A stretch of 63,723 nucleotides of DNA, the filler included, from Collodictyon triciliatum (taxonomy: Eukaryota): assembly GCA_043381765.1 (NCBI GenBank). It is 3 parts of 3 records of this genome, joined end to end, with 100 filler letters (N's around TTAATTAATTAA, not from the genome) between each part and the next. Parts side by side here need not be neighbours in the genome. Positions count along the whole stretch, not along the records: positions 1 to 27,209 come from JBHJMP010000996.1; 2 more parts are not named here. One strand, given 5' to 3'. The notes beneath the pieces were generated by a model. That model worked only from the letters and a program-made list of their open reading frames with translations, did no database searches and was not told the origin of the DNA. Position numbers and translations under genes: made by a program. Positions 1,940 to 37,334 of this stretch are shown here, piece after piece. Within the stretch, counting starts at the first letter, position 1; each line of letters begins with the position of its first letter.

Positions 1940-4900
1940 ATGTCTTCAATTAAAGTTGGTCGTGCGACCATGGGGAACCGATTTAGGACTTTCAGGTTTA
2001 TTGAATTGGCTAATTCAATATTTTTCTTTGTTTGAATATTTTGAAATAAATCATAAAAATACACCAAAATATAAATATACTCAGCTAACCTGAAATCAAA
2101 CTTTTCAATAGCTCATATCACTTAAAATCCAAGACCGTAAGATGGGTTGCAATCACCATTGTTCTTCTCATCAACAGTATCTCGCGTGTGACAACATCAG
2201 ACAGGTATTTTTTTTATCAAAAATAAAATGTGTCCTACTTTTTGGTAGCATGCTAAATGTATACATATTAATAGATGTCACTACACTAAACCTGAACTAC
2301 TAAAAATGAAAATTGAAGATGCTTTTCTGATACTTTTACAACTTTATGAAGAAACGTGTCCGTTCGATATACATAATGAGAATCACTTGAGCATGAATTC
2401 TTATAATGAACCATATCTAACCAATGGAGAGCACTCCTTCGAGTCGGATAGTAATACACATTACACCAGAGAATATGGTGGAAACCTTTTGATAAGTGCA
2501 ACACCAACGAAGGAGGCTGCGCCTATCATAGAAAACGATTCTTTCAGAAATTTTTTTGAAGGAAATAACTTTTCTGAGCAATATGATATGCTAATAACCC
2601 TCTATGATGTACTGGACGGAGACGGATGGTATAAAAATGATGGTTGGAAAAATAAGACTATTCCAATATGTGAATGGTACGGGATCAAATGTGTCGAGGG
2701 GTGTCAGGACGATGATTATTCGGTTTGTTACTTTTTTTTTGTAAAAAAAAAACGACACAATTCTCCTCTTTTAAACTAACATAAATTCCAATAGAACAAC
2801 TCTTGTGATGTAGTGGGATTCGAGCTATCTGGTAATAATCTGCATGGGAATATCAGCGAGGCATTCTTTATAATGGAAAAGTTTTACTTTTTGAAAACTA
2901 TTCACTTGCACCATAATTTCATCTTTGGCAATTTAACCGACCCTCACTTTCCAAATATACGGAGTTTGACTATTTTTCAAAATCAAGTCACTGGAACTAT
3001 TCCTGACTTTCAAGGAATGAGCAATATTGAATACTTAAGAATAGACTCTAATGATTTGGTGGGTCAAATTCCTAACTTTTCCTCAATTCCTCTCGTAAGA
3101 GATTTATATATAGGCTCGAGTGATAAGTTAACAGGTCATGATTTATCAATTTTTAAAATACCAAGCAAAATAAAGGTGTAAAATAATATTCGTACCTGTT
3201 TCATATCGCATCTATAAACTTTATCAAATCTATTGCAGGGACTTTGCCTGACTTTGATAATATATGCAATATCCAGTCTCTTTTCATATACAGTACTCAG
3301 ATATCAGGTATGATATGATAGGTCTTTTTTTATTCACAAAGTATCACGAGAAACCAAAATTTTCTGCAAAATTAGGAACTATCCCAGACTTTGAAAATAT
3401 TGATTATATTTTTGAGCTAAATATGTTCAATAATCTGTTGAATGGTATGTCAGAGACGATTGACACTTTACATCAATATTTTTGCTCTTTTTTTTTTAAA
3501 AAAAAAATACCCCGACCTTGAAAAATATTCAAAATGGATATGTTTTATCAGACACATATCATTAACCTCATTGCATCAAAATTAAAATCAAATTAATAAT
3601 TATTTTTAAAACTCACTATATGTTACATTTTACAGGAACAGTTCCAAACTTTACCAAATTATCGTCTTTTTTCTGGCTTGATTTATCAAATAACCATCTC
3701 AGAGGTAAAATTAAAGATCTTCTGCGTGCATAAACTTGATGGCCTTTGATGAATAAAAATGAAATATTTTTAGGAACAATACCACTCTTCTGCAACAACG
3801 TTGAATATCTCGAGTTTATTGATTTATCAGATAATAACCTTGAAGGTATATTAGTTTACTATGACTTATTCATCTAAACTATAAAATTTGTAAATGTCGC
3901 CAGATTTTTCTATAATACCATGATAGATTTGAACCAAAGTCCATTCCATGTATAACATAGAAATGGAATTTTGGTATTTCAATAAAAGAATTATTAACGT
4001 GTATATTTTAATCAAGGAGCTATTCCGGACTTCAGTGGCTATCCAAATATATATCATATAGATTTTTCCAGCAATAAATTAAATGGTTCAATGATATTAT
4101 TCTATGACAGTTTTTTTTTAATTTATGAACAATGTTCAAACTTTAAAATTTAGGGACAATATATGACATCAGTAGTATTTCATCCATCCAACTTCTTGAG
4201 TTGTCACACAACCTACTGACAGGCAATATTCATTGAATTTCGTTTTTACCAAAAAAAAATTTTAGATTTATAGAAGGTTTGTATTTTATTTTTTCATTTG
4301 ATTGACCCTTCAACGACATTAACACCAGGAAAAGTCCCAAATTTTAATCAAATCCCGTACATCTATTGGATTGGTCTCTCGAAAAATCTATTGACTGGTA
4401 AATCTTGTATTTTCATTACAATTTTTTATTATGCAACATTTTAATAATCTTAGGTTAAAATGATTCCAGGAACAGTTTCAGATTTTCGCGATATGCCTTC
4501 GATATTATATATTGACTTATCCGACAATACATTGACTGGTTCGTTTTGATCTTTTTCTATACATTCTGGATAAAAAAATTGGTTGAAATATAATTTTGTG
4601 AGTATAATTGCTCCTCTTTTAATCACAGGCTCAATTCAAGAATTTACCGAAATCCCAACGGTTAACCTCATTGATCTTTCCAGTAATCTGTTTACAGGTA
4701 ATCTCAACATATTACTAATCGAATTTATTTAGCTCCCCTTTCATGTTATACATCAAAATATAGGCACAGTCCCTAACTTTAAAGGTTTCGAGAACTTCAG
4801 GAGAATGGATTTATCGAACAATCTTTTAGAAGGTCTTGAATTAGGGTGTGCATGATGAAGAACCTTTTTTTTTATTTTTTTTAAAATATCTGATTGTAAA

Positions 4901-6678
4901 CACCAGGAAATGTTCCGATATTTGAAAAACTCCTCACTGTGGTTACAATTAATTTATCAAATAATAGGCTCAGTGGTAAGGTTTTCATTTCTTGAAGGAT
5001 AGTAATTTTAATCGCCCCAAAAAATTTCATAACTTCACTTTTCTTTTTCTAATATTTTTCTATGCTTAAAAAATTCATCATTCACTAAGATAATTCCTGC
5101 TTGCTCACTTGACAAATCAAAGTGTGAAAGTAGGAATAGTGCAACATCTAATATACTAATGATATTGATTTTCTAAATAAAAAATATGTTATTCAGGTAC
5201 TATTCCACCTTTCAGTGACCAAATATATCTTCAAATACTACAACTGAGTGGAAATCACCTGAGTCGTAAGTAAAATAAAAGAATTTTATTTCTTGTGTAT
5301 TTGGGTATTCGTAAATACATATCATCTTGATTTAAAACTGAATCCTGATTTTGTAGGTATATCTGAGTTTGAACTTCCATCGCTTTCTTTTTTGTCGTTG
5401 GAAAACAATATAATAACAGGTTTTTTTAATGAATATGATAAATCGGAAGATTGCATGTATTAATAAAAACATTAGGAATGCTTCCCACTTTTCAAGGATG
5501 TCCGTCTTTGATCATGATATCTGCGTCTGATAATAGATTTACGATGAGTATGACAATTTTTGGCTTTTTTGCATCACTTCATTTTTTACTCTAAATATGT
5601 CTAGTGCAGTTTAGACTGTATAAAATTGCATAAAATTTATTGTGATTTGCAAGATTTTACTGTTGTAATAATTACAATCATTCTTGATTTTTTTTCTCAT
5701 TTTATGAATTTACCACTCTTAGTGCAAGAAATATCCGCGCCGCTTTTAGAATCCCTCGATTTATCGACGAATAGTCTTTCTGGTAATACATAACTTCAAC
5801 AAATTAAATGAAACATTATGCATAATCCATCGCATGTTTTTTTTTTTTTTGGTTTACCTCGTCGAATATTCCGAGTTTATTGGTTAATCATGAATTTCTT
5901 TATGGATAGGAGCACCTCCTGACCTAAAAAATGAACTCCTCAAGGAACTTGACCTATCCTTTAATCATTTAACTGGACCACTTCCGGCCTGGAATGCCCT
6001 AAAGAAACTTGAAAAACTTGATTTGTATGGAAATGAGCGCTTGGCTGGTCCTTTACCCTCTGGAATGAATGAATATGAGGATCTAACCTATTTAATTGCT
6101 ACAAATACAAGCATGCAAATGCAAGATACATCAGGTATTCTGCCGAAGGTGCTTTTTTTCTCAGAAACATATCAAATAGACAATATTGAAGATAACTACC
6201 AATGTCCCGTCATCGAAAGTAAATATAATGTGCGCTCGATTATTGGACTCAATTCTACATATTACGGACGAATCGTGTGCCAATGCTTGCCTGGGCACTT
6301 TGGATATGGTGATAACTGCATTAAATGCCCGAAGGATTGTGATTGTCCTGACGGTATTTCTCTCAAAAATTGCTACCCTTCTCCAAATGTTAAAAAAGTG
6401 AAGTCCATAATTACATGTCCTCGTCCAGAATCATGCCAAATGGTGGTCTCGAATAGGAAGACATACGAAAATTTTACAACAGTAACAAGCAGTACTTGTC
6501 AAGAAGGATACGAAGGACGTGCTTGTTCCAAATGCGAAATTGGATATGCGATGCAAGGGAGATCGTGTGTGAAATGTGTAAAATCGATGGTGTATTCAAC
6601 AATCATTATATACTCATTAGGGTTTCTTTTATTGTTGCTTTATCTTTACACTCTGGATAACCCAAAGTCAGGTATTTT
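1940..6678 (+). CDS. LRR-containing Cys-rich membrane receptor-like protein (multi-exon, 3' end lost in N gap)
   Basis: Spliced frame from ATG 1940 (MSSIKVGRATMG...WVAITIVLLINSIS, signal-anchor-like), plant-type LRR N-cap (LYDVLDGDGWYKNDGWKNKTIPICEWYGIKC), over 20 LxxLxLSxNxLxGxxP repeats mostly on 69-72 nt exons, then Cys-rich region (CQEGYEGRACSKCEIGYAMQGRSCVKC) and a hydrophobic helix (TIIIYSLGFLLLLLYLY) just before the gap at 6679. Confidence 0.88.
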
Positions 6679-7465
6679 NNNNNNNNNNNNNNNNNNNNNN
6701 NNNNNNNNNNNNNNNNNNNNNNNNNNNNNNNNNNNNNNNNNNNNNNNNNNNNNNNNNNNNNNNNNNNNNNNNNNNNNNNNNNNNNNNNNNNNNNNNNNNN
6801 NNNNNNNNNNNNNNNNNNNNNNNNNNNNNNNNNNNNNNNNNNNNNNNNNNNNNNNNNNNNNNNNNNNNNNNNNNNNNNNNNNNNNNNNNNNNNNNNNNNN
6901 NNNNNNNNNNNNNNNNNNNNNNNNNNNNNNNNNNNNNNNNNNNNNNNNNNNNNNNNNNNNNNNNNNNNNNNNNNNNNNNNNNNNNNNNNNNNNNNNNNNN
7001 NNNNNNNNNNNNNNNNNNNNNNNNNNNNNNNNNNNNNNNNNNNNNNNNNNNNNNNNNNNNNNNNNNNNNNNNNNNNNNNNNNNNNNNNNNNNNNNNNNNN
7101 NNNNNNNNNNNNNNNNNNNNNNNNNNNNNNNNNNNNNNNNNNNNNNNNNNNNNNNNNNNNNNNNNNNNNNNNNNNNNNNNNNNNNNNNNNNNNNNNNNNN
7201 NNNNNNNNNNNNNNNNNNNNNNNNNNNNNNNNNNNNNNNNNNNNNNNNNNNNNNNNNNNNNNNNNNNNNNNNNNNNNNNNNNNNNNNNNNNNNNNNNNNN
7301 NNNNNNNNNNNNNNNNNNNNNNNNNNNNNNNNNNNNNNNNNNNNNNNNNNNNNNNNNNNNNNNNNNNNNNNNNNNNNNNNNNNNNNNNNNNNNNNNNNNN
7401 NNNNNNNNNNNNNNNNNNNTTTTTTCATCTTATTCTGATCTTTTGGACTTTGATACTTGATTTAG

Positions 7466-9128
7466 GTTTCCATTGAAACCCTGAAGGAGCGGATCAGCTC
7501 AGCTCCAGCAGTGACAAACTTTCTCCATAGACTCAAGAATGCTCCAGGAACACCAGTAAATGACAATACATTTTCAGTCCTTAATCCGTAAAGAGGGCCT
7601 ACTCTCGTTCTTGTTTATCTGGATACGTAAATCATCGAGATTCGTTTGTCTTTAATATTTTACCAATCGCTTTTTGCTCCTTTATGTATTGTTTCGTTAC
7701 CCATCAGGTTCTCGCCGAGGTAAAAAGAGCGTCCCCATCTAAAGGTGACATTGCTGTCAACATAGATGCCGCCGAGCAAGGACTGAAGGTAGATATTTAT
7801 ATATATTTCATATTTTATCCTGTATTTTTCATTTAATTTTATTCGAAAAATGGTGGGATGTTGTACCTCAACGCGCTGGTAACGAAATGCCATATTTTCA
7901 AGTATGCCCAAGCAGGAGCAGCAGCTATATCAGTTCTTACTGAGCCAACTTGGTTCAAAGGGCACTTGACTGACATGCTTGGTGTAAGGAATGGTTCGTG
8001 TTCTATTCCTATTCATTCTACCCACAATTTCGGTCAATAAATCAAACGCTTATCGGCTTTTTGGTTCGGATGATTTCTGTTTATTCATATTTCTTAACAA
8101 CACCATTACTAACTCACTATCCCCATTTCAATGGCGTCATTGGATTCTGTTTACAGCTGTGGATTTCATGTCCACCGAAAGACCAGCAGTACTAAGGAAA
8201 GACTTCATCTTGGATGAGTACCAAGTCTACGAAGCGCGTGCCTATGGAGCTGACACAATTTTGCTCATTGTCAAGATGCTTTCGGACGAGGATGTAAGAT
8301 GGGAACTAATAAAAAAAAAATTATCTCAGTATCTCCACTTTTGAATTTTATGCTGCTAATGATGCACTTTTGCACCAAAATCTTCTTTCAATAACGCGAC
8401 TCAACATATATCCAGATAATATCATTGATGAATTTATCCCGCACACTCGGAATGGAGCCATTAGTAGAGGTTTGTCTTCCTATTCATTATTACTACTATT
8501 TTCTCTCCTTACATGTAAAGAATATGCAAACTAAAATTATCGATTGGATGATGACTTCTTTTATATATGATGATATTGGGTTCTGATATACAATATTGTG
8601 TATTAATATCTAGTATTCTGTGATGATGAATTGATACAGGTTCAGAATGTTGAGGAGATGAATCGGGCTGTAGCACTTGGGTCTCGTGTCATCGGAATAA
8701 ATAACCGAAACCTTCATGACTTCAATGGTAGCATAAGCAGACCGATATGCATTCATGCATAAACCTGAAGGAATGATTAATTCTGACGTTGATTTTTCTT
8801 CTCCGATGGTGCCCTCAGTTGATCTAGGCACTTCAGAGCGCTTGGTGTCTCTTGCTCCTGAGGACCGTATTGTGGTAGCCCTAAGCGGCATCAACAGTGG
8901 CGAAGACGTTCGTCGCTTTGAATCTTGTGGCATTAAAGGAGTTCTTGTTGGAGAAGGTGGCAAAGGGCCCACTCATCCATTCCCCTTTCCCCTTTTTTTT
9001 TATTTGTATTTATCATTACCACTATCTATTTTTATTTTGAACTCACTTCTTTTCCATCTGGGACAATAGCTCTGATGAAGCACAGTAACCCCGGACATCT
9101 TATCAGCGAATTATCTGGACGTAAATGA
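7466..9128 (+). CDS. trpC: Indole-3-glycerol phosphate synthase (IGPS), multi-exon, 5' part lost in gap
   Basis: Eight exons join to give [94 protein letters not shown]. The frame ends ...SELSGRK-TGA at 9126-9128. Confidence 0.95.
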
Positions 9129-10964
9129 GCGAATCATCTCAAACCCTTGTTAAAATTTGCGGCGTCAAAGATATAGAAATGGCCTGTGTGTTTTTCATTA
9201 TTCCATTCAAAATAATACCATTGTTCATGTAGGATTCGTATTCGCTGTGACACCTTTGATTTAATCTCTATTTTTTTTCTTCCTTTTTGTGCTCTTTCTC
9301 AATCTTTCTCATCTGGCCTTTATTCTGATAACCTCAGTGGCTGTTTTGGACTCTGGCGCTGACTTTCTTGGGCTGGTATTTGCCGAAGGCTCCAAGAGGC
9401 TTGTGGACATTGCAACTGCAAAGGCGATTACGGACGCTGTCAAGTCTAGACGGAAAGGGGCTTTCGACTCTCTGCAATTTGTGGCAAAACGGAGAACTGC
9501 TCCCAAAGACGTGACAGAATGGTTTATTGAGGAATCTCTGGCACTGAGAGAGGCGGTCTCCAAGACAGGTGAATATTCTAAGCCTTCTTTTTCCTCCATT
9601 CTGTGTGCAAGATGACTTGAAGGACAGCAATTGGATTCCATTTATTAACGATGTGAATGTAACATACTGGGCATTGTAATCAGGGATGCTGGTCGTCGGT
9701 GTATTTTCTGACCAATCACACGAGTACATGAATCAGTATGCGCTGCTATAGTTATTATCGTCTATGAGATGTTTAGTTTCCCACAGTTTTCTCGAATTAT
9801 TTTACAAGGAAATAATGAAAAAGAAATGCATTCCACGAGATGCAACACCCTCACGGAAGGAATCGTTTCGTCATTTTTCTCCTTTTTTTTTTGATTTGAT
9901 GTGTGCGCCCATTATAGCCACTCTGGTACTTACTGTTGCATGGTATGATGTAGTGTGGCATCAGAGGTTGGCTTGGATATTATTCAGCTTTCGGGTGTTG
10001 AAGGCTTCCAAGTCATCAACGAGATTCCCAGGTAATTTTAGGGAAAATACACTAAGTATGGGAAAGCTACCGACCTTTCTTTATAATAACATTCGTACTA
10101 AACTGTACAATGACTTTCCATCCAGCGTATGCATCAAGGCCATTCATGTAGGCGATGACCATCAAGCAGAGAGCATAGTTGGCCAGGTATTATTTCAATA
10201 TTTGCTACTTATCACGACTCAGAACCATTGTCAGTTGGTCTCTTTTTTCTTCCTTTTTGCCTTTATATCTTGGTGAATTATTATTTTTCACCAAAGAAAA
10301 ATGCACTTTTTTAGACCTGAATATTGTTTCTTGCTTGCGGCTCCTCATTAGAACTTTCAAAAATAGGCTGTTCCAAACACTGCGTCCCTCATTCTTCTGG
10401 ACACGCTCGTAGGTTCTCATAGAGGGGGAACAGGACAGGTGAGTTAAATCTCTCCACACTACCTTATTCACATGTCTAAAATCGCACAGTTCCGCTGCAA
10501 TTACTCCGCACCAATTCTCATGCTGAACATTGTGTGCCATGACAGACTTTTGACTGGGACATCGCCGCTCAGATTCAGGCCTCTGTGCCGGTCATGTTGG
10601 CTGGCGGATTGAATCCTGGAAACGTGTCACAAGCCGTCTCCAAGTAAAGTCTCATCCATTTTCCAGACCTTTGGCTCATATAATTTTCATTAACATTCAC
10701 CATTGTTTTTGTTTTTTCATTAAGGAAGGAGAAGGAGTAGTTCATACATATACGAACATTTATACACGAAAAAAAAGCCTTAAAAAAATGATAGAAATAA
10801 AATGTCATAAACTTTCCATCTGATGACTTTCTCGTGCTGTATGTGTTCGTCGCAGGGTGAAGCCGTGGGCAGTGGATGTCAGCAGCGGAGTAGAAACAAA
10901 CGGTGCGAAGGATATCGAAAAAATCCGCCAGTTTGTCTCTGCCGCGAAGCAAACAAATGCTTGA
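9125..10964 (+). CDS. trpF: Phosphoribosylanthranilate isomerase (PRAI), 8 exons
   Basis: ATG 9125 [106 protein letters not shown] 10962-10964. Carries the ~40-aa insertion typical of fungal-type fused TRP1 PRAI domains. Confidence 0.93.
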
Positions 10965-11343
10965 GAAGTTCGCATCGCTTTCTAGACAATATGTTCACCT
11001 CCGCACCCCCTTCCCTTTTGCTCATTTCCGGCGCCATATCCGAATGAAAAAAGGGAATGGAAGAGAGGAATAAATAAAACGCCGCAAGAAGGACGAAGTG
11101 GTATCGAAAGAAAAGAGAGGCCATAATACCTCATATTCTTTCCACAATATAATATTATGACGTAGTTTTTGCAGACACATCGATTGGGTTGTGCGGGGAT
11201 TCTGTTAATCTCGTCCATGGTGCTGTCTATCTTTCATGTAAAGACGTATCTTCTGGCACATGTTTGTTTTATGAAATAACTGGATAGGTGCCTTCTGCCA
11301 CAGCACTTGTGTTTGGAGCGGCAAACACGCGATATCTTTCTCT

Positions 11344-14300
11344 TCATGAACCACCACTAGTTGCAGTTGTAGCCGAGTCCCCCATCAAACTCATATGGCA
11401 GAACTGCGGGCGCTCAGCCGCATCCCCCTTCCAACACGTCTCCATCAACTCAACAACATGAACATCCATCCTTGGGCTGACCTTTGGCCGGAGTCCGCGC
11501 AGCACCTCCTTCTGAAGAGAGAGTCCGTCAAAGCCTTGGTACGGGATTGCTCGCGCCTCGATTTCCCACAGCAGGATTCCGAAGCTGTACACGTCCGCCT
11601 TCTCGTCGTATCTTTCACCTCGAATAATCTGAATACAGTTTCGATCCGGTTAATGTGGGAATAAATATGCGTATGAATGTATAATCATAATTAATAAATT
11701 AATTGTGGTTATCGTATGAATAAAGAAAGAGGAATGGAAAAAATAAATTTGATGAAAGGAAACAAATTGTCAGTTGTTCTGTCATGTAAAAATGAAGTGG
11801 TTGGAACCTCAGGGGCTTGGAATGGCATCGTCCCACACTTGGTCATTGTCTTGTTGCTTGATTTCATTCGAACAAAGCCAAAGTCACATATCTTGGCTTC
11901 GAAGTTGGAGGTTACCTACACCGTGGGATTGGCTGTGTGTTAATCCGACACCACTGGATATAGTCCCTCCGTTTTGCACTTAAGCAAACATCACTAATAT
12001 ATACTCGTGTGTAACCCATAACCTCGCCCAGGTAGAATAAATACAGAAATAATTACATGAATAAAGCATGCGTCAGTTGGTCGAGGTTGACAACTTACTA
12101 AAACATTTGCTGACTTTAGGTCTCTGTGCAATATCGGCGGATTATGGCCGTGCAGATATGACATGGCGCTGATTATTCCCGAAATAATTCGATATCTACG
12201 TACGGTAGATAATTCCATCAGTCCTTGGCTTTTGGTTTATTAGCTTGTCTGCACTACCAACCAATTCTTTACTTACTTCTCCTCGCGGCTTATCAAAGTC
12301 TTGTTATCCCGAAGGACGTGGTATAGGCTACCTGGCCGGACTAGTTCCGTCACAATCAGATTATTTTCAGATACGACACTTGCTCCCATAAACTTGACAA
12401 TGTTTGGGTGTGACAACTTCCTAAAGGAAAGGTTAGGCTGAGCTCCACAGCAAACATTATTTTTCCTCTTTGCCTTAATGAACATGCTTGTTATGGGAAA
12501 ATACTACATACTTTAAAGTGCTAGGTTTAATTACCTCATAATATTTATTTCTGTCACAAATCCGGACATATGCCTTTCATCGTTTTTTTTCTTTGTCAGT
12601 TTTTTCACCGCTACGTAAGAGCCCTGCGTAATTATTGAAATGTTCAGATTTGATGAAGGAATAGCGTAAGGGGAATACGCATAATTTCTAAAAGGCGAGT
12701 AAAATTCAGAAAAGTGAATGTAACGGGATAGCAGACACGACCCATGTTGCACGTACATTTAAGACACCAACAAAAACTGTTCCAAATGACCCAGTCCCAA
12801 GAACAAGCGGTTGGATTTCAAGAGCAGCCATGTCTACTTCCCATGTATGTCTCTCCTCCAACAAATATGTAGTTTCTAGTTTCCTATCTCTATCTGAATC
12901 ATCTGTGCTAGAGCTAGGCGCCACCACCGAAGGGAGGTTGGTTCCCTTCTCACTTTCATGAGTCTCTGCCTGTATTAAGCACCTTCATGATTAAGTGTGA
13001 AAAGGTTTTCACCTCCAAGATTTTAAGGTAATACGATTTCTGAAAGATAAAGTTTGGACAGTATTTTCAAATATTAACATCTATTGGGATTAAGGTGTTT
13101 GACCTGGAAAGATGCATTCGTAATTGAGTGTGCAACAAAACTTTGAGTTTTCCCAAATAAGCGTTCAGGCATATCGACCGGTGCAATCTAGAGGTTTCAA
13201 AATTAAATCTTAGAGATTGTGTACTCAATTCACCAAATAATGCTGTTCTAGAAGACTATACCATCTCACCATGGAAAAGAATGGAAAAAAAAACTTACTT
13301 CTCGAATATCACCGATTTCACTTCGTCCATCGACATTCTCATTTATTTCCATAGAGCGGCAAATCGATTCGAAGCTTAATTTACTATCAACGATAACCTG
13401 TATAATTCATGTATCGATCTCACAATAGGGAATACTGCGAATTGTGTCATTTTGTTTTGAGAATGCTTTCAAAAATTACCTTATGGGCGTTCTGGCCAAG
13501 TAGGGTTTGGCCACCCAAACTTACCTTTGAAAGCTTTGCAGCTCTGGTGACCGCCTGCAATTGTTTTCATTTAATAAAAATAAAAGAACTTCTGGAAAGC
13601 ACATGTCAGTGTTTTGATTCAAAAATCGTCTTGTTTCTGGGTCTCACTTTTCCAAAGTAGATTACAGTTGAATTTTCATTTTGATACTTGGATTTCAGGA
13701 CTCCAAAGTCGATTCCCTGGTTGAAGTATTTTCGCTTTAATAATAATCTTCAATGCGGCGTTTAACAACAAGAGGATTGGCCAATTCTATTTTGGTTCTA
13801 ACAATAGCAATATTACCATCTTAATTCGAAGTCCTCGCAAATTATTCTCTATTGAAGGCATACCAAACTCATGATTCAAGAGCTCAGTTGGCCAACTGGC
13901 TTCGTTGAGTCTTTTTTGAGCCGATGTACAAAATCTGGATAGATTGATTCTTTAGCATGCTGATTCTTTTTATTATCGATCAACTTCTTCATCTTCTTCA
14001 ATATATAGAAAATTCACCTCAGTGAGTCATCTACAGAACTAAAAACAATCAAAAATGTATCTGTGCTGTGTTGTCCAATATGTCCATTATGAGATTTGGA
14101 CAGCTACAATCAAATTACGAGAAAATTTTTAGTCATGATAGTAAGTGGCTATTCCTTTCACGCAGTTGTATTTCTAGCGGCATATAATGAGCGAATATAC
14201 CTCTTTGACAATATCATAATAGATGATGATGGATTCGCCCATCGTTTCAGGTATATCATCCCAAAGAGTGTTTGCTCCGTGAATTCGCAAGCAAACGGTT

Positions 14301-17300
14301 GCCAGAAGTCCATCAGACGGAGGTTTTTCGGAAGACCTGTTGAGCTCCTGTTGCAGTGCATACAGAATGTAATTATTTTTTTGTACATAAAAAAAAGTAA
14401 TGGGAGTTCATTTATTGAAAAAAATACGGTGAAATTTGTTTGGCCTTCCATGTGCTCTTGAGCAACCAATTTCTGTAAAGAAAGTGTCAGTCCACTCATC
14501 AATCAATAACTCATTAAAGTAACATAAAAATTAAAAGAAAATATACTAACCTCGATAACTTTCGTTATTTGCCGAAAAGTTGGGCGCTGCTGAGGGTTTT
14601 GATCCCATGCATGAACAATCATGTCCTTGATAGGCTGTGGTGTATTTTCAGGCATGTCAGGGCGCAGTTTATTTGTCACGACTTGAAACGAGACAGCGAA
14701 GGGGTTGTCTATGTTTGAGAATAGCTCCTTTCGACTCATTATCTCCCATGCTATCAGAGCAAAACTGTAAACGTCAGCAGCCTGAGTGTACTCCTTTCCT
14801 TCGATAATTTCTGGCGCCATCCACAACAGTGTGCCACTAGTCTCATGACTTTTTATTGTTCCTTGAATTATCGTCATTCCAAAATCACTATGAAGAAATA
14901 TTAAAAAATTGTTTTTAGATATTCCCAACGATTCAAACGCGTATTTGCTAATTTTATATTTTTCCAGATCACCTTATTTTTAGTCTGCATCTGTCATCAA
15001 CCTAATAAATTTGCGTGGTTGATTACAAAGTTTTCAATTTTGAGAAATACTGCACAATCTAAAGAAATTAGCGCATCGACAAAACAAACCAAAAAAAAAA
15101 TAATTACCAGGACGTTTAAACTTTTGAGGTCCCTGTGCAAGATAGGTGGGTTGGATGAGTGCAAGTATTGCATCCCTAATGAGTGATGTAGCAAGTTAGT
15201 GATAGAGCGAAGGATAGAAAGTTGATCGCGAGGCAAAATACCCTTAACAATATCGGAGATGAAGCAAAGGCGTTGATTTAGAGGTATGTCTATGGGTTTG
15301 TGAAGAAGCTCAAATAGTGTTCCTTGGTGCATGAGTTCGCAAACAAGACTAAGGTCATCCTCCTGAAAACTTGCACCCATATACAATACGATATTTGGAT
15401 GTCTTAACTCTCTAAATAGATGAAAATAAACGTTTAATGAGGTTATTGCTCATAATTTCTCCTAAATCAGAATGAATTAGGCCATATTGAGAAGAAATCA
15501 AAATTCATTATATATTAGAGACGATGTGCGAATATAATAAGTGGTTGTTTAAGACAATTTATTAACAAAAATTTTATGCAATTCAACTTACACCATTACA
15601 CAAATTTCTCTTTTAAACTCTTCAATCGCTTCCTTGCTCATTTTTCCTTTCGGTAACTTCTTTATTGCAACTTCAGTTCCTCTCCACTCGCCTTTGAAGA
15701 CCTTTAAATTGAATGCGATGAATAACTGATCAATTTTTAATTACTTTTAAAAGTATAGAATAAAAAGATAAAATACTTTTACCTGTCCGAAACTACCAGC
15801 TCCAAGTAAAGCCTTGCAATTAATATCGACTGGGTTGATAATCCCGTATAGCTTTTTTTCTGCTTCAGCCAAATGATCCAGCATTTTCTTTCTTCTGTAG
15901 AATACTAATATACCAGATGATATTGCAAATAGGCCCACGAGGCAGCTGCTTAATACGATTATGAATGTGTAATCCTTTTCTCGATGCTCTAAGGTACAAT
16001 TTAAGCCATATTTTTAAATGTCTGAAAGTATTCTTATATTATTTTTCATTAAATTGTGTATCATAAAAACGCCTGTTGTTCATACCTGGAACGCAGAATT
16101 TCTATGATAGAATATCAAATTACTATTAGTTATCCCGCGGGTCGTTCAATACAGTAAAATTATTATGAAATACATATTGAGAAATATATTTACCTCCGAG
16201 TTTAGCTCGTATCCTCGCTCACAAACACACATGTTCTCAGTGACATCCAGTCTGGAGTGCTTGGGGCATGCTTAAATGATGTATTTCTCAATAAAAAAAA
16301 AAACTGGATTCATTGAAGTTGTGAATATTTTGAAATAAGGTTCAACTTACATGCATGTATAATTGTAAACCCTTCGCATTGGGGACAGGGCATATTTTTA
16401 TTCCTCAGGTTTGAATGTGCAGATGTGAAGCGGATGAGAAATCCGTTTTTTGAAGTGTATATCTCGTGTCCGATTTCTATATTTCGTGATGAAATGGTGT
16501 TGTCTGGTACATCGACATCTCCCGAAACAGAGAATATCTCGATTCTAAATTCAATGAGATATCAGGAGGGGTATTCCATTACTTTAAGCAATCTCTGTAG
16601 CTAAACTGCAAATAAAGTGGAACATAATCACTGAAATTACTTGTCAATATCCCTTATCAATTTAGTAGTGAGTGCAATATGTGTAGCACTAGGTAAAATC
16701 CAAGTACAGTTGGTGCTTTCCAAATACATGGCATCCCCACTACCATCGTCAAATGATGACGGTTCAAAGGAGCTGTTTATCACCGTTGGAGACTTGCTTG
16801 AACAAAATCCTGAAAAAAATACACATTAAACAGTGTAAATTACACATTTTAGACCCGGTATTACCTGGTTTATATCCCATAACTTGATTTCTTAAAGTCA
16901 TCCCATGCTTTCCAGAGAAGTATATCAGAGTATCGTTTATCATCATTCCTGCGTGATGCGTGATAGGTCCATTATTTTTGAAACTGGGCGACTCAATGTG
17001 CATAACGCCTTGTCTCTGATGTTCTAAGATCAATATGGAGATAACATACATGTTAGTAAGTGATATTCCCTGATTGAATTTTATTAGAATGAGGAAAAAA
17101 TGGTGAAAAGGGATTTTCGATACTTTACTGAAATTAAACTATTGAAGCCTAAAAGAATCATATGCTACCATGTTGCAACATGAAAATTGTATTTTGCTTT
17201 AAGTGGTGATTGTATCCAGCCACGAGTGTAACGTTGTCAGATGAACCACACATGTGTGCAGACATTATCACGGAGTTTTCTTTACTTCTGTATTTTGACT

Positions 17301-20300
17301 CAACCCATTCATTCATTTCTATACAGATAGCGTCAAAACTAGATTAGAAGCAATATAAAGTAAAATAGCATTTGTTTAATATAGTTTTCAAATTGCTTAC
17401 CAATATCATATATCCAGTGGTCTCCCAAAGAAGCACCATCAACTCCTATTCCACCATAGAGAGAAATCTTGCTTGCGTCAGTTTGGCACAATGAGTGGTA
17501 GATTCTTCGGGCCTTTAGATAGGAACAAAAAATAAAACCAAATCAGAATTCACTCACTCATTCGCCATTTAAAATAAAATAGATAAATGTACGGGAGTTT
17601 TGGGGGCAAAATCCTTCGAAGAGACTGTTTTGTTCTTTGTATCGAAAGAGACAACAGCGTTGTAAAATTCAGTGACTCTGGTTCCAGGTGTTATCTAGAA
17701 AGTCATAAAATTTTATAGTGTTATTATTATAGGATACATTTTTGAAGATTTTGTCTAGCGTAATGGTGAGAGAGTGTTTACTTGGCCACCCCACATCCAA
17801 ACGGTGTCACCAATTTCTATATGAGCCATTCCATATCTCATGAATGGTCTCTGAAATGGAGAAAGCTCATTTTTCATCTCAACCTCTCTCCACGAACGAG
17901 CCCCTGCGCTCAGCATTAAAAAAAATAATTAGGACTAATCATCAACTTCTGTTGTTGGAGTGATTCCTATGTCCATTTGCTATGAATCCACACAAACGCA
18001 TACTCAGGTCGAATGCCCAAACGAATGGGTCTGAAATTCCGTGTTCTGTTCTACCACCAGTGATGAATATTGTGGAAGATATAGCAGTGACTACAGCTCC
18101 AGCTCGAGGTGGTGGCCTCATATCTGACGAGCCAAGAAACAGGGGTTTCCATTTTCCGTGCACTTTTTTTTAAAAAAAAAAATAATTAAATTACAAATTA
18201 CATTAATGAATTATTTCCCTCTATTCGGTCCAATGATTAGTTATTTTAATTGATAAAAACAAATAAAAATGAAAAATAAAGAGTGTTTTCTAGTAAGCGA
18301 AATACTTACGTATGTCAAAGGTCCAAAGGTCGTTCATTAGGACTTCTTCCAAAAATAAGGTGGAGCCTCCGAAAACAATAAAAGAGTTTTCGTCATATTT
18401 CCCAAAACCAGGTTCGAATCGGTGAATGGGGGAACGCACAATCGATGTATCTGTCCACGTCCTCAATTCTGATTCGGCAATATAAAGTCAGAATCTTCGA
18501 CAATCCCTCTAACATATAAACATGTTTTCGAACCCACCAGTATCCCAAACCCACAAGTCATTTCCGACATATCCATCAGTGCCTGCACCTCCTATGATTA
18601 TCATCTTGGTATCAATAGTCACAGATGCTGCTCCGTACTTCGGCGGTGGATAGGAGAGAGGAAGGTCAGGAAGCTTTAACCCATAATTTTTGCGGAACGT
18701 TATTTCCCGGGTTTCTAGTGTAAGAAAGAGTTATGCGAGATTGTCCTTCCTAGCTTTTTTTCTCTGGGAATCGATTGATTGTAATTTTGGACATTCACCC
18801 CTACCTATGTCGATGATGATGATATCCTCGAGCGGGTCCCTCATACGTAACCCCCCGAATATGTGAACCTCTTTTTCATTTGAGCTGAAGGCAAAGTTCT
18901 GTCTTCCATAGGTGCAATTGCGGCCCTCGTCAAGACATTCGATGCAATCATGCATCATCATTCCACCGTTTTCATGTCCACCGTTCACTATGTCGAAATG
19001 AAATGTCAAAATAGTCAACTTTTAACAAGATAAGTGAATAGTAATTGTTCGATGTAAAACTATTTACATATATCCAATTGAATGATTTGGTCGCTTTGAT
19101 AGCCTCCGTCAGCCCCGCCAAGCAGAAAAAATGTATTATTCACTACAAACATCCCGCCAAATGCTCTCTTGCCGTGATTCCCAAAGTCTATATCAATCGG
19201 TCTCCAAGTACCATTACCTGTTCGGGGTTTGAAATTCTGAATAAGTATATCGATACACAGGCTTGTTATTTAAAAAAATTGAAGGAAACCTGGATTATAC
19301 TCCAAAATATTTGACATCGTCGAACCAGACTCTATCTTCATTTTGTAACAAAATTTATATTAATGAAATATGAACTCCATTGATTTATGCTGTCGATAAC
19401 TCATCACTTTTAATCAAGTCATGCCTATTTACCTGTATTCCTCCGTGAATGTATATTCCAGAGCGATGCTTTTGGCACTGCGCCCCATAAAACGGATACG
19501 GTGCATATCCTTCCCTCATCCATTTAGATTCGTTAAGCAGAAGCGAGTAAGTGCCTCTGTCAGGTGCATCTGTGTGACCGCCCAAAAGAATTCCTTTACC
19601 ATCGTATTCGATGAAGCATGCATGAACCCGGCGTGTGGGTATATCACCTCCCACAGGCATCCTATACCAAGCTCCCAATTCTTTTTTGGAAAAGTAAGCC
19701 AAAAATAGATCAAAACAATGTAAGTCGCTGTATATACGCAAACGAGGGTAAAAACATCTTTTTATTAAAAAAAAAAAAAAAAGACAAAAAAACCTGTGAT
19801 TTCTGTCCAGAAGACGGTGTCCATAGGGTGATACTCATGAAAATTGTTCAGAACTGGAGAAGAGCTCCCAGCCACAGCATAAATTTTATTATTTATGAAT
19901 GCAGCAGAATGGTAAACGGATGGAGGAAGCTCTGTTCCTAACTCTATCATATCTCCTTGGCCCAATCCATCGATATCTATATTTTTGTTCCCCCGTTGAA
20001 TATATGCAGGCTAATAAAGAATAAAAACTGGTTGCGCGTTTGGGTCAGCCTAGAGGTACTCTCACATACCATTTATTCTTTCAGAGGATTCCTGGAATGA
20101 ACTCAGACAGTAAGTCTAAATTTTTTGTGCTCTTAGATTCCATCAAGCTGACTGCAAGACAATAGCAAATAATTCAAAAAATCGTGAAAGAAACACTGTA
20201 CCTTATTCTCTTCAGGCTGATGTGTCCCGTTAGAACACGGGATGCATTCCTTTTGAAAGTTGATGAATTTTTCAGCCTCACAAACGCATCCCTCTGGCCT

Positions 20301-23300
20301 AGCGATGAAACCAAGTTTGCAGTCTACAATCAACCAGTTCTGGTGAATAGTTTGTCATGTAGGTACCCCGAAATCTAGTTTGATAACTTACTAAATAAGT
20401 CGAATGAAAACCCAATAGTTGTGTCGCTGGCGTCTTGTGGAACCATGAATTCGACGACGGATACATAAGACGGAATTTCGATTATGTCTCCGACAGATAA
20501 CGATTTCATGTCGACCTATTAAAATCTTTTTTCAATTCTTGCCAAAAACCTTCCGACTATAATAAGCGAGGCAAAACCTTAAAACATGCATTTGCACTAA
20601 CCATTCTGTCGGACTTCAGCCCTATGTGAATTGACTCATCGCAATCTGAAGGTAATCCCAAAGTCAACGCAGCATCGCCTGAAACGTTTACATATTTCAC
20701 CTGTATAATCACACAGATTTAAAAATTGCTCCAATCAAAAATGAGGACAGTTTTTTTTATAGTTACATACCACCATGAAGTTCGAGTCCTCGATGCCCCA
20801 AGAACAATGAGTTCCAGGCATGTAATTAAACTCTCCGCTGCCATCCTCCAGCTTATCAATGCCACCTCGTAGCATTTCTTTATCCCGACACCAGAGTCGC
20901 TCTAAAGTTCATCACATCAGGGAAGTGTTTGATAGTATTTTAATATAGTCGAAGTGAGACGTAAAAAAAAAAAAAAATTGGTATTTTGAAAAAGAATGTG
21001 GAAAGCTATACCCAAATCTAACTCATACATCCCATTTGTGGGGAATATTCTTTTTTCTCCTTCATTGGAGCCAACATCAAACACGTTGCCGCCAAAAATG
21101 AAAGCCTTTCGATGGTGTACCAACGTTCCTGACCTTGTCCTACCGTGCAACTGTTTCATCTGGTTCTCCAGCTCCAAAGAGAAGCCTTTCGTGACTAGAT
21201 TGTAGGGAATATCATAGTGCACACACAAGGGTTAATCATGGTATAATTTTTATAATAATCTTAAAGTTTGGATATGTTCAAAGCAATTTACCATCGATTC
21301 CCCAAAATTCGTCTATAAATCTCCCGTGCTTATCCCATCCGCCAAACCCGAGGAGTGCTGTCGAAAATCCAAGAATGTTTATTTGGTCTGGAACATCCTC
21401 ATCAAGCAGCATCATCTGTGACCAACCATGTGTTTCTGTTGCAATTCATGTTAGTCCAAATACAATCGTTTTTTATAAAAAAAAAAAAAAAGGAAAGGTT
21501 TAAACCTCGAGTCCAGCACCAGACCTCCCTGTGCTTGCTTGTGCTTAACTGAGATAGATTGTCAATGAAGCACAGATTATCTCTCGAGGAGAAACCATTA
21601 ATGTTTCCTCTAACAATTGGGACGTTTGTTGAGTTTGTCACACTCTTTAGCTCTGATGTCTTCATATCATAGATTATGACGTGATTATCAATAGGGTTTG
21701 TATGGTTGCCATGCCCACCCCAAATTAATATTTCACTACCAACAGTGACAAAGGCGGCAAAGGAGCGAGTTGAAAGTGAAAGTAGCGCGGGATTCACGTT
21801 AATTTCTTCCCATGTTCTGCTCTCTGATTTTTAATTATTTTTTTTTAGTTGAATCTAATCATTTATTTTTGCTTTTATAAAAAAGAAGGAAAACCAGAGC
21901 ATACTTAGGGAGAACTTCATTGATAGCGCGGTTGCTTCAAGGTGGCTGATTCCTCCAAAAAGAAATATGTGCTCGTCGTAGTACGATATAATCTGCAGCA
22001 AAAGTATGAACCGAATAGCGTCCCTTTCACTTCGAATATGCATTGGAGATATACTTGTATATTTGTTTACAACTTACAGGATGCAATACTGAAGGCAGGC
22101 AAGTGTGATTATCTTGACATTCGGACTCCTGCCAGACTCTCTGCCAATTTTTTTCTCCTGCGTATTTACAGGGGTAATGAAAACACATACAATAAGCAAA
22201 GATGAATGAATAAAAGACATGTTGACTGAAATTTTATTCTCCTGCTTTATTGATTCAGTTTTTACCGATTTCATACGTCCAGAGGTCATTGATAAGCCTT
22301 TTTTCTCCATCATAGCACACTTCTCCTCCGTAGAGTGCCAACCTGTCCTCATCCATACCAGTAATTGCCGGCCACGCTCTGCCCATCGGGTAATGCTGTA
22401 AGCTGCTTGCCACCCATTCATTAAGAGCTGTAATTAAAAAATGGGTTAATGCTCACATATTGTCATCATATCCATATTTTAATAAATAAAAAAAAAAAAG
22501 ATATCCTATATCCGAAAAGAAACCTGTGTCAAATGCCCACACATCGTTTTGTGGGCACTTATTCGTTCCTCCAAAAAAGTAAATGGAGTTTCCGACGAGC
22601 ACCGATGACACGTCTTTCCTGGCTGACGGATGAGTGATAGGAAACTGAAGCGAGTTCTGGTTTTCAACGCTGAATAAAATCTCTGCCTGTCCGTTGTCTA
22701 AACATAAGTCATCATGAGCTCATGGCTGATTTGGCTTTCCTGACTGATGTCAAATCGATTCAATAAAATTATTTTATTCAACAATCTACTGCATAATCAG
22801 ATATATTTCTGAGCGAGCCACTACCGAGATTGACTCTGTACAAATCATTCGAAAAGGTCTCTCCTTCATGGTCTAATGAACCTCCAAAGATGAATACATG
22901 AGACTGAACCGCGTTTATTGTGCCAAAAATTCTGGGTGATATTCCAGAGGGGTATACAGGCGGTTCCCAATTTTTCGAGACTTTAGAAGCAGTTGGTTCA
23001 GTAATGTCATCATAATTTTTATATTTCTTATTTCCCCCAAAAAAAAAACACAATAATTTAATATAAATATACCTGTGTTGAAACGGAATATTGTGGCCGA
23101 CAAGTTTTCATCCTCATCTATGCCCCCATATATCAACAAATGATCGTTGTGAATCGTCATCTGGGATGTCACCACGTTGGGAGCGTACTCATAGTTTTGG
23201 CCTGGGAGATGACTTGTCCAAGTTTGACTCCCTTGCATAAGTATAGCAAAATCATTATTAAGGCTCCCTTCAATCACATTATTTAGGGCCTGTATCGGTG

Positions 23301-24462
23301 CATAGACTATCAATTTCTTTTTGATATTATAGCTCTCACCGATGTCATATGACCACAAGTCGTTAAGTTCATCCCCGTCGCACCCACCATACACATAAAT
23401 GGTGTTCTTTTGGGACGCGCATTCCATCGAATCTCGTCCTTGTGGAAGCTTTTCACTGTTGTAATGTTCCTTCGTCCATTCAAGACTTGTCAGGTCTAGC
23501 GAATACATCGTGTTCAAGTGATACCAATCATTTGCGTTCCACCCTCCAAACAGGTATATCTGGGTATTGGATGATGGCAAGCTTAGATAAAGCACTGAGC
23601 AAAGCAGGCACTTCTGTACATATTAGAGAGAAAATATTGTTAACCTTATTTTCCGCCAGAAGGAGACAGTAAAGGTATTGCCTTTCGGGAACTTCACCTT
23701 TCGTGGGTTTTGCCGTCCACCTGAATGTATCTTTTGCAGGGAGTAAAAATTATGTCTTGACATTTTCTCTATATTTTCCAAAAAAAAAATATGTCTGTAA
23801 TTGGTTTCTAAAAAAAAAAAGTCTGATAAAAGCTTACGTGTGTCAAAAATCCAAATGTTGTCGAATCTTGCTCGATCTTCTTTGTATTCTGTGTTGCTGA
23901 TATACATGTGGTGTGTCAATATCTTTTTAGTGAAACATGATTTGATTAATTGTAAAAAAAAATACCTCTATTATGTAACAAATATTTGTAAATAATGTCC
24001 CTTTCTTTCTATTCGGTGCTCTTCGCTTTGGATAGACACATGAGTGGCAAATAGTTGTACCTGCCGCCAAGAAAGTATATCTGATTTCCTTGGGAAACCA
24101 TAGTTGTCCAGGCTGACTCCAAGGGGTATCCTTGGTAATGGGCCCATCCTATTGTTGTTGTTTTTTTTTGACATTCATTTACGTGATGGAAATATATGAG
24201 TATCTATGTAGTCCAAGAACAGGAAATGGTGTTGTTTTTATATGTAAAAAATGGTATTTTTTTTCCCATAGACTTGCGTGCATTAATTTATGCATGTGGC
24301 CTTACCTTCCACTGGTTTTTCGTGCGCCTCGTGGGCCATCGTTGGAGCAGCAAGCGATACCAGGACAAGAATCACGACGGACAGGTGTATCGTTTCTCGT
24401 GGTTTTGCGAGCGGCTGGAGCAATCGAGGCATATGCCATCTCCTTTGGTTTTCACGTCTCAT
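11344..24462 (-). CDS. Receptor-type tandem TKL kinase: signal peptide-[kelch x~11-CUB-Cys-rich]x2-TM-kinase-degenerate class III cyclase-kinase
   Basis: First exon MRRENQRRWHMPRLL...IHLSVVILVLVSLAAPTMA; many kelch motifs (YLFGG, YVYGG, FIFGG, LIWGG etc.); CUB starts (DGSGEFNYMPGTHCSW ~20790-20850; DDGSGDAMYLESTNCTW ~16700-16750); TM (IIVLSSCLVGLFAISSGILVFY-RRKK ~15890-15965); kinase 1 (GAGSFG, VAIKK, HRDLKSLN, DFG, WMAPE); cyclase-like segment ~13530-14345; kinase 2 (GTGSFG, VAVKK, HRDLKSAN, DFG, QAPE, KADVYSFG); stop at 11344. Start codon is tentative. Confidence 0.88.
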
Positions 24463-27420: not shown

Positions 27421-36413
<8,993 letters not shown>

Positions 36414-37334
36414 GCTGGCTCTCCTCCCAAAACAACGCAACAAAGCGAGAGGCGCCGCGGCAAGAGACAGACAAACAGGAACAAGAACCCAAAAAGAAGA
36501 AAGAAAAAAAGGAAGAAAAGAAGAAAAAAAAAAAAGGAGGAGAGGAGAGGGAGAGAAAGAAGGATGTTGTCAACCCGAGTGCTGCTCTGCTGCTGCTGCC
36601 GCCCGCCTTCACGCTCTCAATCCCACACACAATCCCGCCCGCATTTCATCACCGAATAAAAACGCACGCCTCTCTTCCCTCGCAACGCCCCGCTCAAAGG
36701 CGCTCAATCAGGTGGAATCAGAACAAAACGCTGCTGATTGTGCAACGCAGGAAGCAGGTGTCCTTGGTCTTTTCTTTTTTTTTTGTTTTTTGTTTTTTTT
36801 TTGTTTCTGTTTTTTTTTTTATTTTGTTTTTCTTGTTTTTGTTTTTCTTGTTTTTGTTTTTGTTTTACTCTTCCTTCTAGTTAACCGGCTCATTCTTCAA
36901 CTTGAAAGCAAACAACTCCGCCGGTCGTAAAAAACCCTTTTCTGCATGGAGAAGCGCAAAGTATCTGGTACCGTCATTTTCATTTTCTCATTTTCTTTTA
37001 TTTTCCCTCTTTTCTCTCTTCTCTCTTTTTTCTCTTTTTTTTCTCGCTTTTTTTCTCGCTTTTTTCTCTTTTTTCTCTTTTCTCTTTTTTCTCTCTTCTC
37101 TCTTCTCTCTCTTCTCTCTTTTCTCTCTTTTCTCTCTTTTCTCTCTTTTCTCTCTTTTCTCTCTTTNNNNNNNNNNNNNNNNNNNNNNNNNNNNNNNNNN
37201 NNNNNNNNNNNNNNNNNNNNNNNNNNNNNNNTCTCTTTTCTCTCTTTTCCCTCTTTTCCCTCTTTTCCCTCTTTCTTCCGCTATATATTTCAAGATTACA
37301 TAGCCTACTGTATTCACTACTTCACTCTATTCAG

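Follow-up and report, generated by a model that had tools for sequence, protein, structure and literature searches.

Overlapping TrpC stop and TrpF start codons in a spliced nuclear gene of Collodictyon triciliatum: a possible case of termination-coupled reinitiation

A spliced nuclear trp gene of the eukaryote Collodictyon triciliatum encodes IGPS (TrpC) and PRAI (TrpF) in two different reading frames, and the stop codon of the first overlaps the start codon of the second in the four letters ATGA. The gene lies in a 63,723-nucleotide stretch of DNA from assembly GCA_043381765.1 (hereafter the window: parts of three records joined with filler, of which positions 1–27,209, including the gene, come from JBHJMP010000996.1). 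A preliminary description made from the sequence had noticed the overlap, correctly in every detail checked, and RNA contigs now agree with the sequence on its position and frame; an assembly indel at the junction is refuted at the RNA level. The gene is genuine. Tentatively, we favour the reading that it arose from a fusion split by a change of frame, and that TrpF is produced by termination-coupled reinitiation on a bicistronic mRNA. Three parts of this reading, the direction of change from fusion to split, the TrpD domain upstream of TrpC and reinitiation itself, are what we infer from the comparisons below.

Results

Two overlapping frames in one exon

At 9117–9130 the window reads GGA CGT AAA TGA GCG. 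The IGPS frame is closed by TGA 9126–9128, and the PRAI frame opens at ATG 9125–9127, one base back (the −1 frame). The IGPS frame enters this junction exon (9070–9185) in phase 1, the G of 8956 being completed by CT of 9070–9071. When the exons were joined by their coordinates, the visible IGPS part came to 245 codons and a stop, and the PRAI frame to 253 codons and a stop in eight exons with no internal stops. A single open reading frame (ORF) holding both domains, as an in-frame TrpC-TrpF fusion of the TrpD-TrpC-TrpF or TrpG-TrpC-TrpF kind would have, was found neither in the genome nor in two RNA contig sets.

The codon of the PRAI frame directly before ATG 9125 is TAA (9122–9124), which is CAA in the variant carried by X1, one of the contig sets described below. 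In that variant the PRAI frame is open upstream of ATG 9125, yet it contains no other ATG back to TAA 9086–9088. The next in-frame ATG, at 9179, lies 3′ of the catalytic Cys motif. AUG 9125 is therefore the only usable TrpF start, since ATG 9179 is past the Cys motif and the frame upstream is either closed or free of ATG.

The letters GTAAAT at 9121–9126 resemble a good splice donor, the hexamer being identical to the donor at 7556. Joined to 9338 (acceptor 9337), this donor would give an in-frame TrpC-TrpF protein whose TrpF part lacks its initial 20 residues, the catalytic Cys among them; none of the RNA contigs used it. As claimed earlier, a GT-AG intron within the exon cannot mend the frame and keep VKICG: the sole good donor, 9121 joined to 9338, removes those 20 residues.

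RNA contigs at the junction

Four read-derived contig sets were aligned with the window (X1, X2, X3 and X6), two of which, from different studies, reach the junction (X1 and X2). X1 is probably an RNA run of a named organism, X2 is a freshwater metatranscriptome from a separate study, and X3 is a freshwater metagenome (DNA). X1 record 2 is collinear with the window over 9068–9185 (118 letters each, 0 gaps), and its sole listed change, T>C at 9122, is synonymous in the IGPS frame. X2 record 4, a 340-letter spliced contig that ends at 9129, covers 9068–9129 with no gaps and no differing letters. The contigs of X3 and X6 lie outside the junction, those of X3 being limited to four short stretches; the small shares listed for 19 further runs were not used as evidence. 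Elsewhere X1/X6 and X2 differ from the window, indicating that they represent separate haplotypes and not the assembly's own data. The preliminary description had set a missing A as the mundane alternative, with AAAA in the reads as its test; X1 and X2 both show AAA-TGA without an indel, with the reservation that contigs lose rare variants and a minor AAAA allele could escape. RNA editing or a cryptic splice mending the frame is ruled out by the collinearity of the RNA contigs with the junction exon. Reading of TGA as an amino acid was also rejected: the continued frame would end at a TAG 16 codons on, short of TrpF, and TGA and TAA interchange at the TrpF stop.

X1 record 2 is a spliced contig of 1463 letters that runs from ~7756 to past 11000 through the unspliced junction exon and spans both frames. 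The dicistronic nuclear mRNA suggested earlier gains support from this single contig, which is not proof of a single molecule, as one contig need not equal one molecule; the 5′ part of the bicistron is masked by an N gap. The 5′ end of the contig bears a loose adaptor-like tail, which we take to be a template-switch oligo tail, as expected of a single oligo-dT-primed cDNA.

Protein families and relatives

Both halves of the gene are ordinary members of their enzyme families, and the view that both domains are intact was borne out by Pfam matches and kept motifs. All three IGPS exons tried match PF00218 (32.6–52.8 bits against a cut-off of 27) and two of the three PRAI exons tried match PF00697 (29.4 and 36.3 bits against 22.7); the 76-residue lineage-specific PRAI exon gave no Pfam match. 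The catalytic motifs of IGPS, including the Lys motif and GINNRNL, are present in the window, the remaining ones being those generally listed for the enzyme. The window IGPS has ALSGI, as does every eukaryote-clade sequence read, where bacterial IGPS has ESGI. In TrpF, VKICG, LLD, GGTG, AGGL and DVSSGVE align with 12 homologues; beside the Cys, the motifs of PRAI supply the Asp and the phosphate-binding site. The Lys of IGPS is essential and the catalytic Cys of PRAI crucial (PMC11528492).

Among database proteins P0002 alone was close to the IGPS exons; it is a complete ORF of 612 residues from a protist transcriptome collection, with TrpD (PF00591, PF02885) followed by IGPS. It is 76% identical to the window IGPS over all 245 visible residues, and its end, ...LIKELSGAQ-stop, aligns end to end with ...ELSGRK-stop of the window, giving the same stop position. 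A protein search with P0002 returned 7997 significant proteins, of which the best 120 were listed and 35 read, P0002 included. The matches read formed three groups: TrpD-IGPS proteins of ~600–660 residues (Lotharella, a Bigelowiella gene model, Amorphochlora, the Diplonema papillatum clade and proteins of alphaproteobacterial metagenome-assembled genomes); in-frame TrpD-IGPS-PRAI proteins of 720–1042 residues (protist transcriptomes, eukaryote-like metagenome contigs and bacteria); and two partial ORFs, P0010 and P0011, that end just past an in-frame F-domain start.

A metagenome scan with P0002 gave 12 loci at 39–59% identity, two of which were opened (L001 and L011) and ten judged by contiguous matches only; the junction of a close relative was obtained from none of the 12. 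L001 (ORF 5248–7557) is intronless and fungal-type, GATase-IGPS-PRAI by Pfam, and L011 is likewise an intronless fungal-type TrpG-TrpC-TrpF by reading and alignment. In the ESM Atlas, P0002 matched prokaryotic TrpD-IGPS clusters only. A protein search with the 76-residue TrpF exon gave 244 candidates, none of them significant, and a metagenome scan with the TrpF exon gave 597 pattern matches, none of them confirmed. HMMER with the same 76 residues against 1.84 billion representatives gave three hits. One of them, P0124 (43%), is a relative and represents part of an in-frame TrpC-TrpF fusion; the other two, P0122 and P0123, are repeat proteins that were treated as chance. The TrpF of P0002's species was not found among these 1.84 billion representatives, which is weak negative evidence but would fit a second ORF on the same transcript that had been dropped. 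The window TrpF most resembles the F domains of P0004 and P0005, both in-frame fusions (46–47% identity over ~250 residues, from LVKICG to the end).

Direction of change and use of TrpF

An IGPS tree was built from 28 eukaryote-clade rows and six bacterial outgroups. The 28 rows form a clade at 100/98. Within it the window and P0002 (100/99) sit with P0005, a TrpD-TrpC-TrpF protein, and with the fungal-type TrpG-TrpC-TrpF L001, at a moderate support of 89/80. Forms lacking F occur in at least four places; forcing all of them into a single clade, a group named after the tree was seen, costs 59 log-likelihood units and is rejected (approximately unbiased test, p 0.0002). The simplest reading of the tree would be that the clade descends from a TrpC-TrpF fusion, one base of the linker having been lost in the window lineage. 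As a conjecture, an ancestral linker ..AAA ATG A.. that lost one A would have gained a stop and kept the ATG in a single step. The reverse order, in which two overlapping cistrons were later fused, would also be compatible with the unrooted count. The layout is better read as a split fusion than as an inherited bacterial operon junction. The fungal TRP1 comparison of the preliminary description stands in that fungal-type TrpG-TrpC-TrpF proteins fall in the same clade; it does not extend to the upstream partner, which in the closest relative is TrpD and not TrpG.

Among the in-frame fusions, the protist TrpD-TrpC-TrpF proteins P0005 and P0008 are identical save for a 34-residue insert after GMEPLVEV in P0008, which resembles an unspliced intron and sits where the window has intron 8470–8639. 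P0013, P0016 and P0020, also TrpD-TrpC-TrpF, have a Ser/Pro-rich TrpC-TrpF linker of ~120–170 residues, so that the linker tolerates very large changes.

The window TrpF is 36–47% identical to the fused F domains, which are 32–47% identical among themselves. Between haplotypes the TrpF frame differs by two synonymous changes, by replacements at two variable positions (L66P, within the lineage-specific insert, and A235T) and by TGA>TAA at its stop; the TrpC frame differs by two synonymous changes, of which one affects the letter directly ahead of AAA. Such small numbers do not allow a rate test. The intact 253-codon frame, the kept motifs, the nature of the haplotype changes and a split older than a 24% protein divergence together argue that TrpF is translated, probably as a separate functional protein from AUG 9125.

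Gene structure and surroundings

The features of the gene are collected in Table 1. The visible part contains 14 GT..AG introns between 7555 and 10856, all confirmed by RNA contig joints, seven before and seven after the junction exon, the latter seven as previously described. The table of joints from which these were taken has 15 rows, one intron being entered twice. The first base of the last coding exon, 10856, is G in the window and A in X1, X6 and X2, a synonymous difference (AAG to AAA); because of this G>A the last joint is printed as GT..GG with one letter between.

Table 1. Features of the trp gene in the window
Feature	Positions	Strand	Evidence
N run (scaffold gap) hiding the 5′ part of the gene: expected TrpD domain and IGPS start	6679–7419	.	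No match to P0002 residues 1–367 in the window (tblastn); X1 and X2 contigs extend upstream
IGPS exon, first visible	7466–7555	+	Joint 7555>7708 in X1 and X2
IGPS exon with 11-residue motif	7708–7788	+	RNA contig joints
IGPS exon	7903–7993	+	RNA joints; Pfam IGPS 6.1e-08
IGPS exon, LRKDF motif	8157–8293	+	RNA joints; Pfam IGPS 4.2e-14
IGPS exon, GMEPLVE	8416–8469	+	RNA joints
IGPS exon, GINNRNL	8640–8727	+	RNA joints
IGPS exon, ALSGI...VLVGE	8819–8956	+	RNA joints; Pfam IGPS 5.1e-09; 82% identity to P0002
Junction exon, IGPS end and PRAI start	9070–9185	+	Unbroken in X1 record 2 (118 letters, 0 gaps) and, as far as 9129, in X2 record 4
ATGA, PRAI start ATG 9125–9127 over IGPS stop TGA 9126–9128	9125–9128	+	Sequence reading
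PRAI exon 2, ADFLGLVF and lineage-specific insert	9338–9568	+	Joints 9185>9338 and 9565>9681; alignment
PRAI exon 3	9684–9735	+	RNA joints (X1, X6)
PRAI exon 4, LDIIQLSG	9954–10031	+	RNA joints (X1, X6)
PRAI exon 5	10126–10186	+	RNA joints (X1, X6)
PRAI exon 6, LLD, GGTG	10367–10438	+	RNA joints
PRAI exon 7, AGGL	10546–10643	+	RNA joints; Pfam PRAI 7.7e-07
PRAI last coding exon, DVSSGVE, stop TGA 10962–10964	10856–10964	+	RNA joints; Pfam PRAI 6.2e-09; stop TAA in X1 and X6 (G>A at 10963)

RNA contigs X1 and X2 run 42 and 158 letters upstream of 7465, and the 30 upstream contig letters printed read ..FIDVYVAKQM, matching ..FVDVVFAKQQ of P0002. Because the contigs go on upstream and match P0002, the gene's 5′ part, which presumably holds TrpD, is to be placed inside the N run at 6679–7419 or past it. 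With the entire TrpD part absent, either the 741 N understate the length of the gap or the join is wrong. The same gap parts the trp gene from a plus-strand leucine-rich repeat (LRR), Cys-rich receptor-like exon with a membrane-span-like end (5894–6678).

The trp gene is flanked by receptor-like exons that are Cys-rich and carry LRRs, and by genes for at least two protein kinases of tyrosine-kinase-like type, at 2249–6678 (+), 11344–12236 (−) and 14503–15449 (−) (Pfam LRR_4, PK_Tyr_Ser-Thr). A multi-exon Kelch-repeat gene occupies 19385–23622 (−; Pfam Kelch_1), and 46417–46977 is an NPHP3_N/NACHT-like P-loop exon. At 50991–53810 (+) there is an intronless ORF of 939 residues that combines seven WD40 repeats with Sel1 repeats and ends in an acidic tail of Gly/Tyr/Asp/Glu repeats; directly upstream, 50423–50968 nearly duplicates the N-terminal part. 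Two identical ORFs of 177 residues, 56735–57268 and 58157–58690, are 1422 bases apart, with a related degenerate copy at ~59683–60054, and look like a tandemly repeated element. Long pyrimidine/purine microsatellites at ~36300–37300, 41133–41647, 47627–48057 and 25713–26054 (CTT/GAA-type, with a TAC run that translates as poly-Tyr) produce spurious ORFs of great length. N runs also occur inside ~37170–37240 and ~55400–55830, as in a gapped draft scaffold.

Discussion

In the reading that we tentatively favour, an ancestral enzyme of the TrpD-TrpC-TrpF type would have been split by a one-base frame change in the TrpC/TrpF linker, and the mature spliced mRNA would carry two frames that share AUGA. 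The upstream frame (TrpC, and by comparison with P0002 probably TrpD-TrpC) would stop at UGA 9126–9128, and ribosomes ending TrpC there would restart on the overlapping AUG 9125 of the same mRNA without a virus-type tethering element. Leaky scanning past the upstream ORF is ruled out because the 734 visible upstream mRNA letters contain 16 ATGs; the upstream ORF has 612 residues in P0002. In viruses, AUGA or UAAUG overlaps drive reinitiation after long ORFs (PMC10275272). Human cellular overlapping ORFs can use reinitiation as well (PMC3923131), and 80S-mediated reinitiation in yeast is independent of cis-elements, works best with short or absent spacers and weakens as the spacer lengthens (PMC11952965).

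Several observations weigh against this reading. The genomic DNA support for the junction is the window only, X3 being off site; the tblastn search with P0002 residues 1–367 matched nowhere in the window, so that TrpD is not in it; and in P0002 the stop position was compared at the protein level, the nucleotides of any ATGA being unseen. The contigs leave room for a shorter TrpF-only transcript, and those of X6 cover the TrpF part only (9363–11000) and none of the TrpC part, a pattern to which 3′ bias would look alike. AUG 9125 has a pyrimidine at −3, T in the window and C in X1. No element resembling the TURBS (termination upstream ribosome-binding site) of viruses was found upstream: UGGGA, which we take to be the 18S-complementary motif of such elements and by which alone 18S complementarity was judged, occurs nowhere in the 734 upstream mRNA letters. 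Rfam gave no match in the whole window. Folding upstream of the junction was unremarkable compared with the rest of the mRNA (z of +0.41 for 90 letters, +1.39 for 60 and −0.33 for 120), and z for 60–120 letters on either side ranged from −1.3 to +1.5. Reinitiation after a long ORF usually requires a special upstream element (PMC10275272).

The strongest rival is that TrpF comes from a shorter mRNA starting inside the TrpC region, from an internal promoter, for instance in or near intron 8957–9069, while the long RNA yields TrpD-TrpC only. On such a transcript AUG 9125 would be the first AUG or would follow a 17-codon TrpC remnant, and ordinary short-upstream-ORF reinitiation or leaky scanning would suffice; an ATG that fits, 9075, lies in the IGPS frame 17 codons before UGA 9126. 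Internal transcripts are the usual resolution of apparent eukaryotic bicistrons, human MOCS2 reportedly having been resolved as separate transcripts, and both the lack of a reinitiation element upstream and the restriction of X6 to 9363–11000 agree with one here. On the other hand, no contig or loose end marks a 5′ end in 8957–9125, although contigs show ends poorly, what X6 shows agrees with the 3′ bias expected when libraries are poly(A)-primed, and the exact AUGA overlap together with the stop position shared with P0002 would be a coincidence. We regard an internal transcript as unlikely, if a serious contender, and rank reinitiation ahead of it, although the sequence and contig data do not separate the two.

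The other explanations are far less probable. A programmed −1 or +2 frameshift at AAA-UGA, proposed in the preliminary description, would remake a TrpD-TrpC-TrpF fusion protein. AAA ahead of a stop is shift-prone in Euplotes (PMC12275403), and the linkers of true fusions differ in length and sequence, so that a shifted product would probably work. The site itself fits a shift poorly: an X XXY YYZ heptamer is absent from G GAC GUA AAU GA, haplotypes differ (T or C) in the letter that precedes AAA, which leaves −1 re-pairing mismatched and unconstrained, and no downstream structure was found (z −1.3 for 90 letters, +0.17 for 60). In Euplotes AAA-TAR gives +1 and NTA-TAR gives +2 (PMC12275403), whereas here +2 or −1 is needed and the stop is TGA; the +1 frame meets a stop after eight codons. 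TGA is moreover a true stop here, as its interchange with TAA at the TrpF end indicates, and a shift needs no ATG, yet an ATG lies exactly on the stop. A frameshift is thus improbable. It is also quite improbable that the TrpF frame was disabled a short time ago and survives untranslated, or that the frame change is a null allele, with PRAI activity supplied by another gene. A second PRAI gene could exist elsewhere in the genome, and stand-alone TrpD-TrpC forms occur in other eukaryotes, but the frame is intact over 253 codons and eight exons with its motifs kept and normal divergence, its stop stays a stop in another haplotype, the split is present in three haplotypes, and the same stop position in a 76%-identical relative implies that an unused frame should have decayed by now. 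Least probable of all, and very unlikely indeed, is an assembly or sequencing error in which one A of AAAA is missing from an in-frame fusion. The site is a homopolymer run in a draft scaffold with several N gaps, but two independent RNA contig sets show AAA-TGA with no gaps, and the stop of P0002, a protein known from another transcriptome, falls at the same place.

The general view is that, without a viral RNA element, eukaryotic ribosomes cannot efficiently begin again once they have translated a long ORF. If the favoured reading is true, an essential enzyme startable only at an AUG that overlaps the stop of a long ORF would provide a natural test of cellular reinitiation and its factors. 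The gene would also represent a natural stage, open to selection, at which a fusion gene comes apart, and would be the counterpart in eukaryotes of translational coupling in bacteria: one base change would turn a three-domain enzyme into two proteins, with neither part relocated and no interval of lost function. If instead an internal promoter is at work, the case is a tidy but ordinary gene fission. The upstream frame stops with seven exon junctions still to follow, which should expose the mRNA to nonsense-mediated decay (NMD) where NMD depends on downstream junctions; its presence in three RNA data sets gives a handle on the NMD question.

Comparison with known systems

The eukaryotic TrpD-TrpC(-TrpF) clade to which the window gene belongs also takes in the TrpG-TrpC-TrpF proteins of fungal type. 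The in-frame TrpD-TrpC-TrpF proteins (P0004, P0005, P0006, P0015, P0017 and others) and the fungal-type TrpG-TrpC-TrpF (TRP1/trpC, L001) have the same domains in the same order, with 47–56% identity to the window in IGPS and 36–47% in PRAI. The linker is of similar length (..SGRK followed by the PRAI start in the window, ..SLKGQQPLDP-LVKICG in P0005). These fusions are single polypeptides, whereas in the window the F domain is one base out of frame, behind a stop, and has its own ATG. Eukaryotes offer well-documented cases of trp gene fusion: an InGPS-PRAI fusion is described in stramenopiles (PMC3942023), and a reversed TrpF-TrpC fusion in an ochrophyte (PMC11528492).

The stand-alone TrpD-TrpC proteins end within 0–4 residues of the window TrpC stop. 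They comprise P0002; the chlorarachniophyte proteins P0007 of Lotharella globosa, P0009 (which, from its 'Bigna1' label, we take to be of Bigelowiella natans) and P0022 of Amorphochlora; and the clade with P0029 of Diplonema papillatum. TrpF directly downstream and overlapping is seen in the window only, these relatives being known here as proteins. A wider proposal, which we hold more loosely than the favoured reading, is that cellular reinitiation at AUGA after an ORF of ~600 codons, with no virus-type element, has been kept since before the split from P0002 and may explain the ends of the chlorarachniophyte and Diplonema-clade TrpD-TrpC proteins.

Bacterial trp operons have ATGA/TGATG overlaps. 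Bacterial coupling of this type shares with the window the four-letter overlap and the succession of consecutive pathway enzymes (PMC6728339). The window differs in having no Shine-Dalgarno logic, in its 14 spliceosomal introns and in a phylogeny that points to a secondary split of a eukaryotic fusion. Literature searches turned up no overlapping TrpC/TrpF pair in a nuclear genome, which is no proof of absence. Green-algal polycistrons likewise make two proteins from one capped, polyadenylated mRNA, but they leak past short upstream ORFs with weak start contexts (PMC7896298; PMC11892635), whereas the upstream ORF of the window is long, with 16 ATGs in its visible part. Stop-codon frameshifting in Euplotes shares the AAA directly before an internal stop; there UGA is no stop and AAA-TAR gives +1 (PMC12275403), while the window site is AAA-TGA and TGA and TAA interchange as stops.

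There is also a likeness in layout to calicivirus VP1/VP2 and influenza B M1/BM2, the TURBS systems, in which an out-of-frame AUGA or UAAUG overlap follows a long ORF and both products are needed (PMC10275272). The viral systems have an rRNA-complementary or structured upstream element; none was found upstream of the window's overlap, which sits in a cellular mRNA, nuclear and spliced, that encodes two enzymes of metabolism. The trp gene of C. triciliatum shares its stop/start overlap with the TURBS systems and has an operon-like layout that is rare in nuclear genes.

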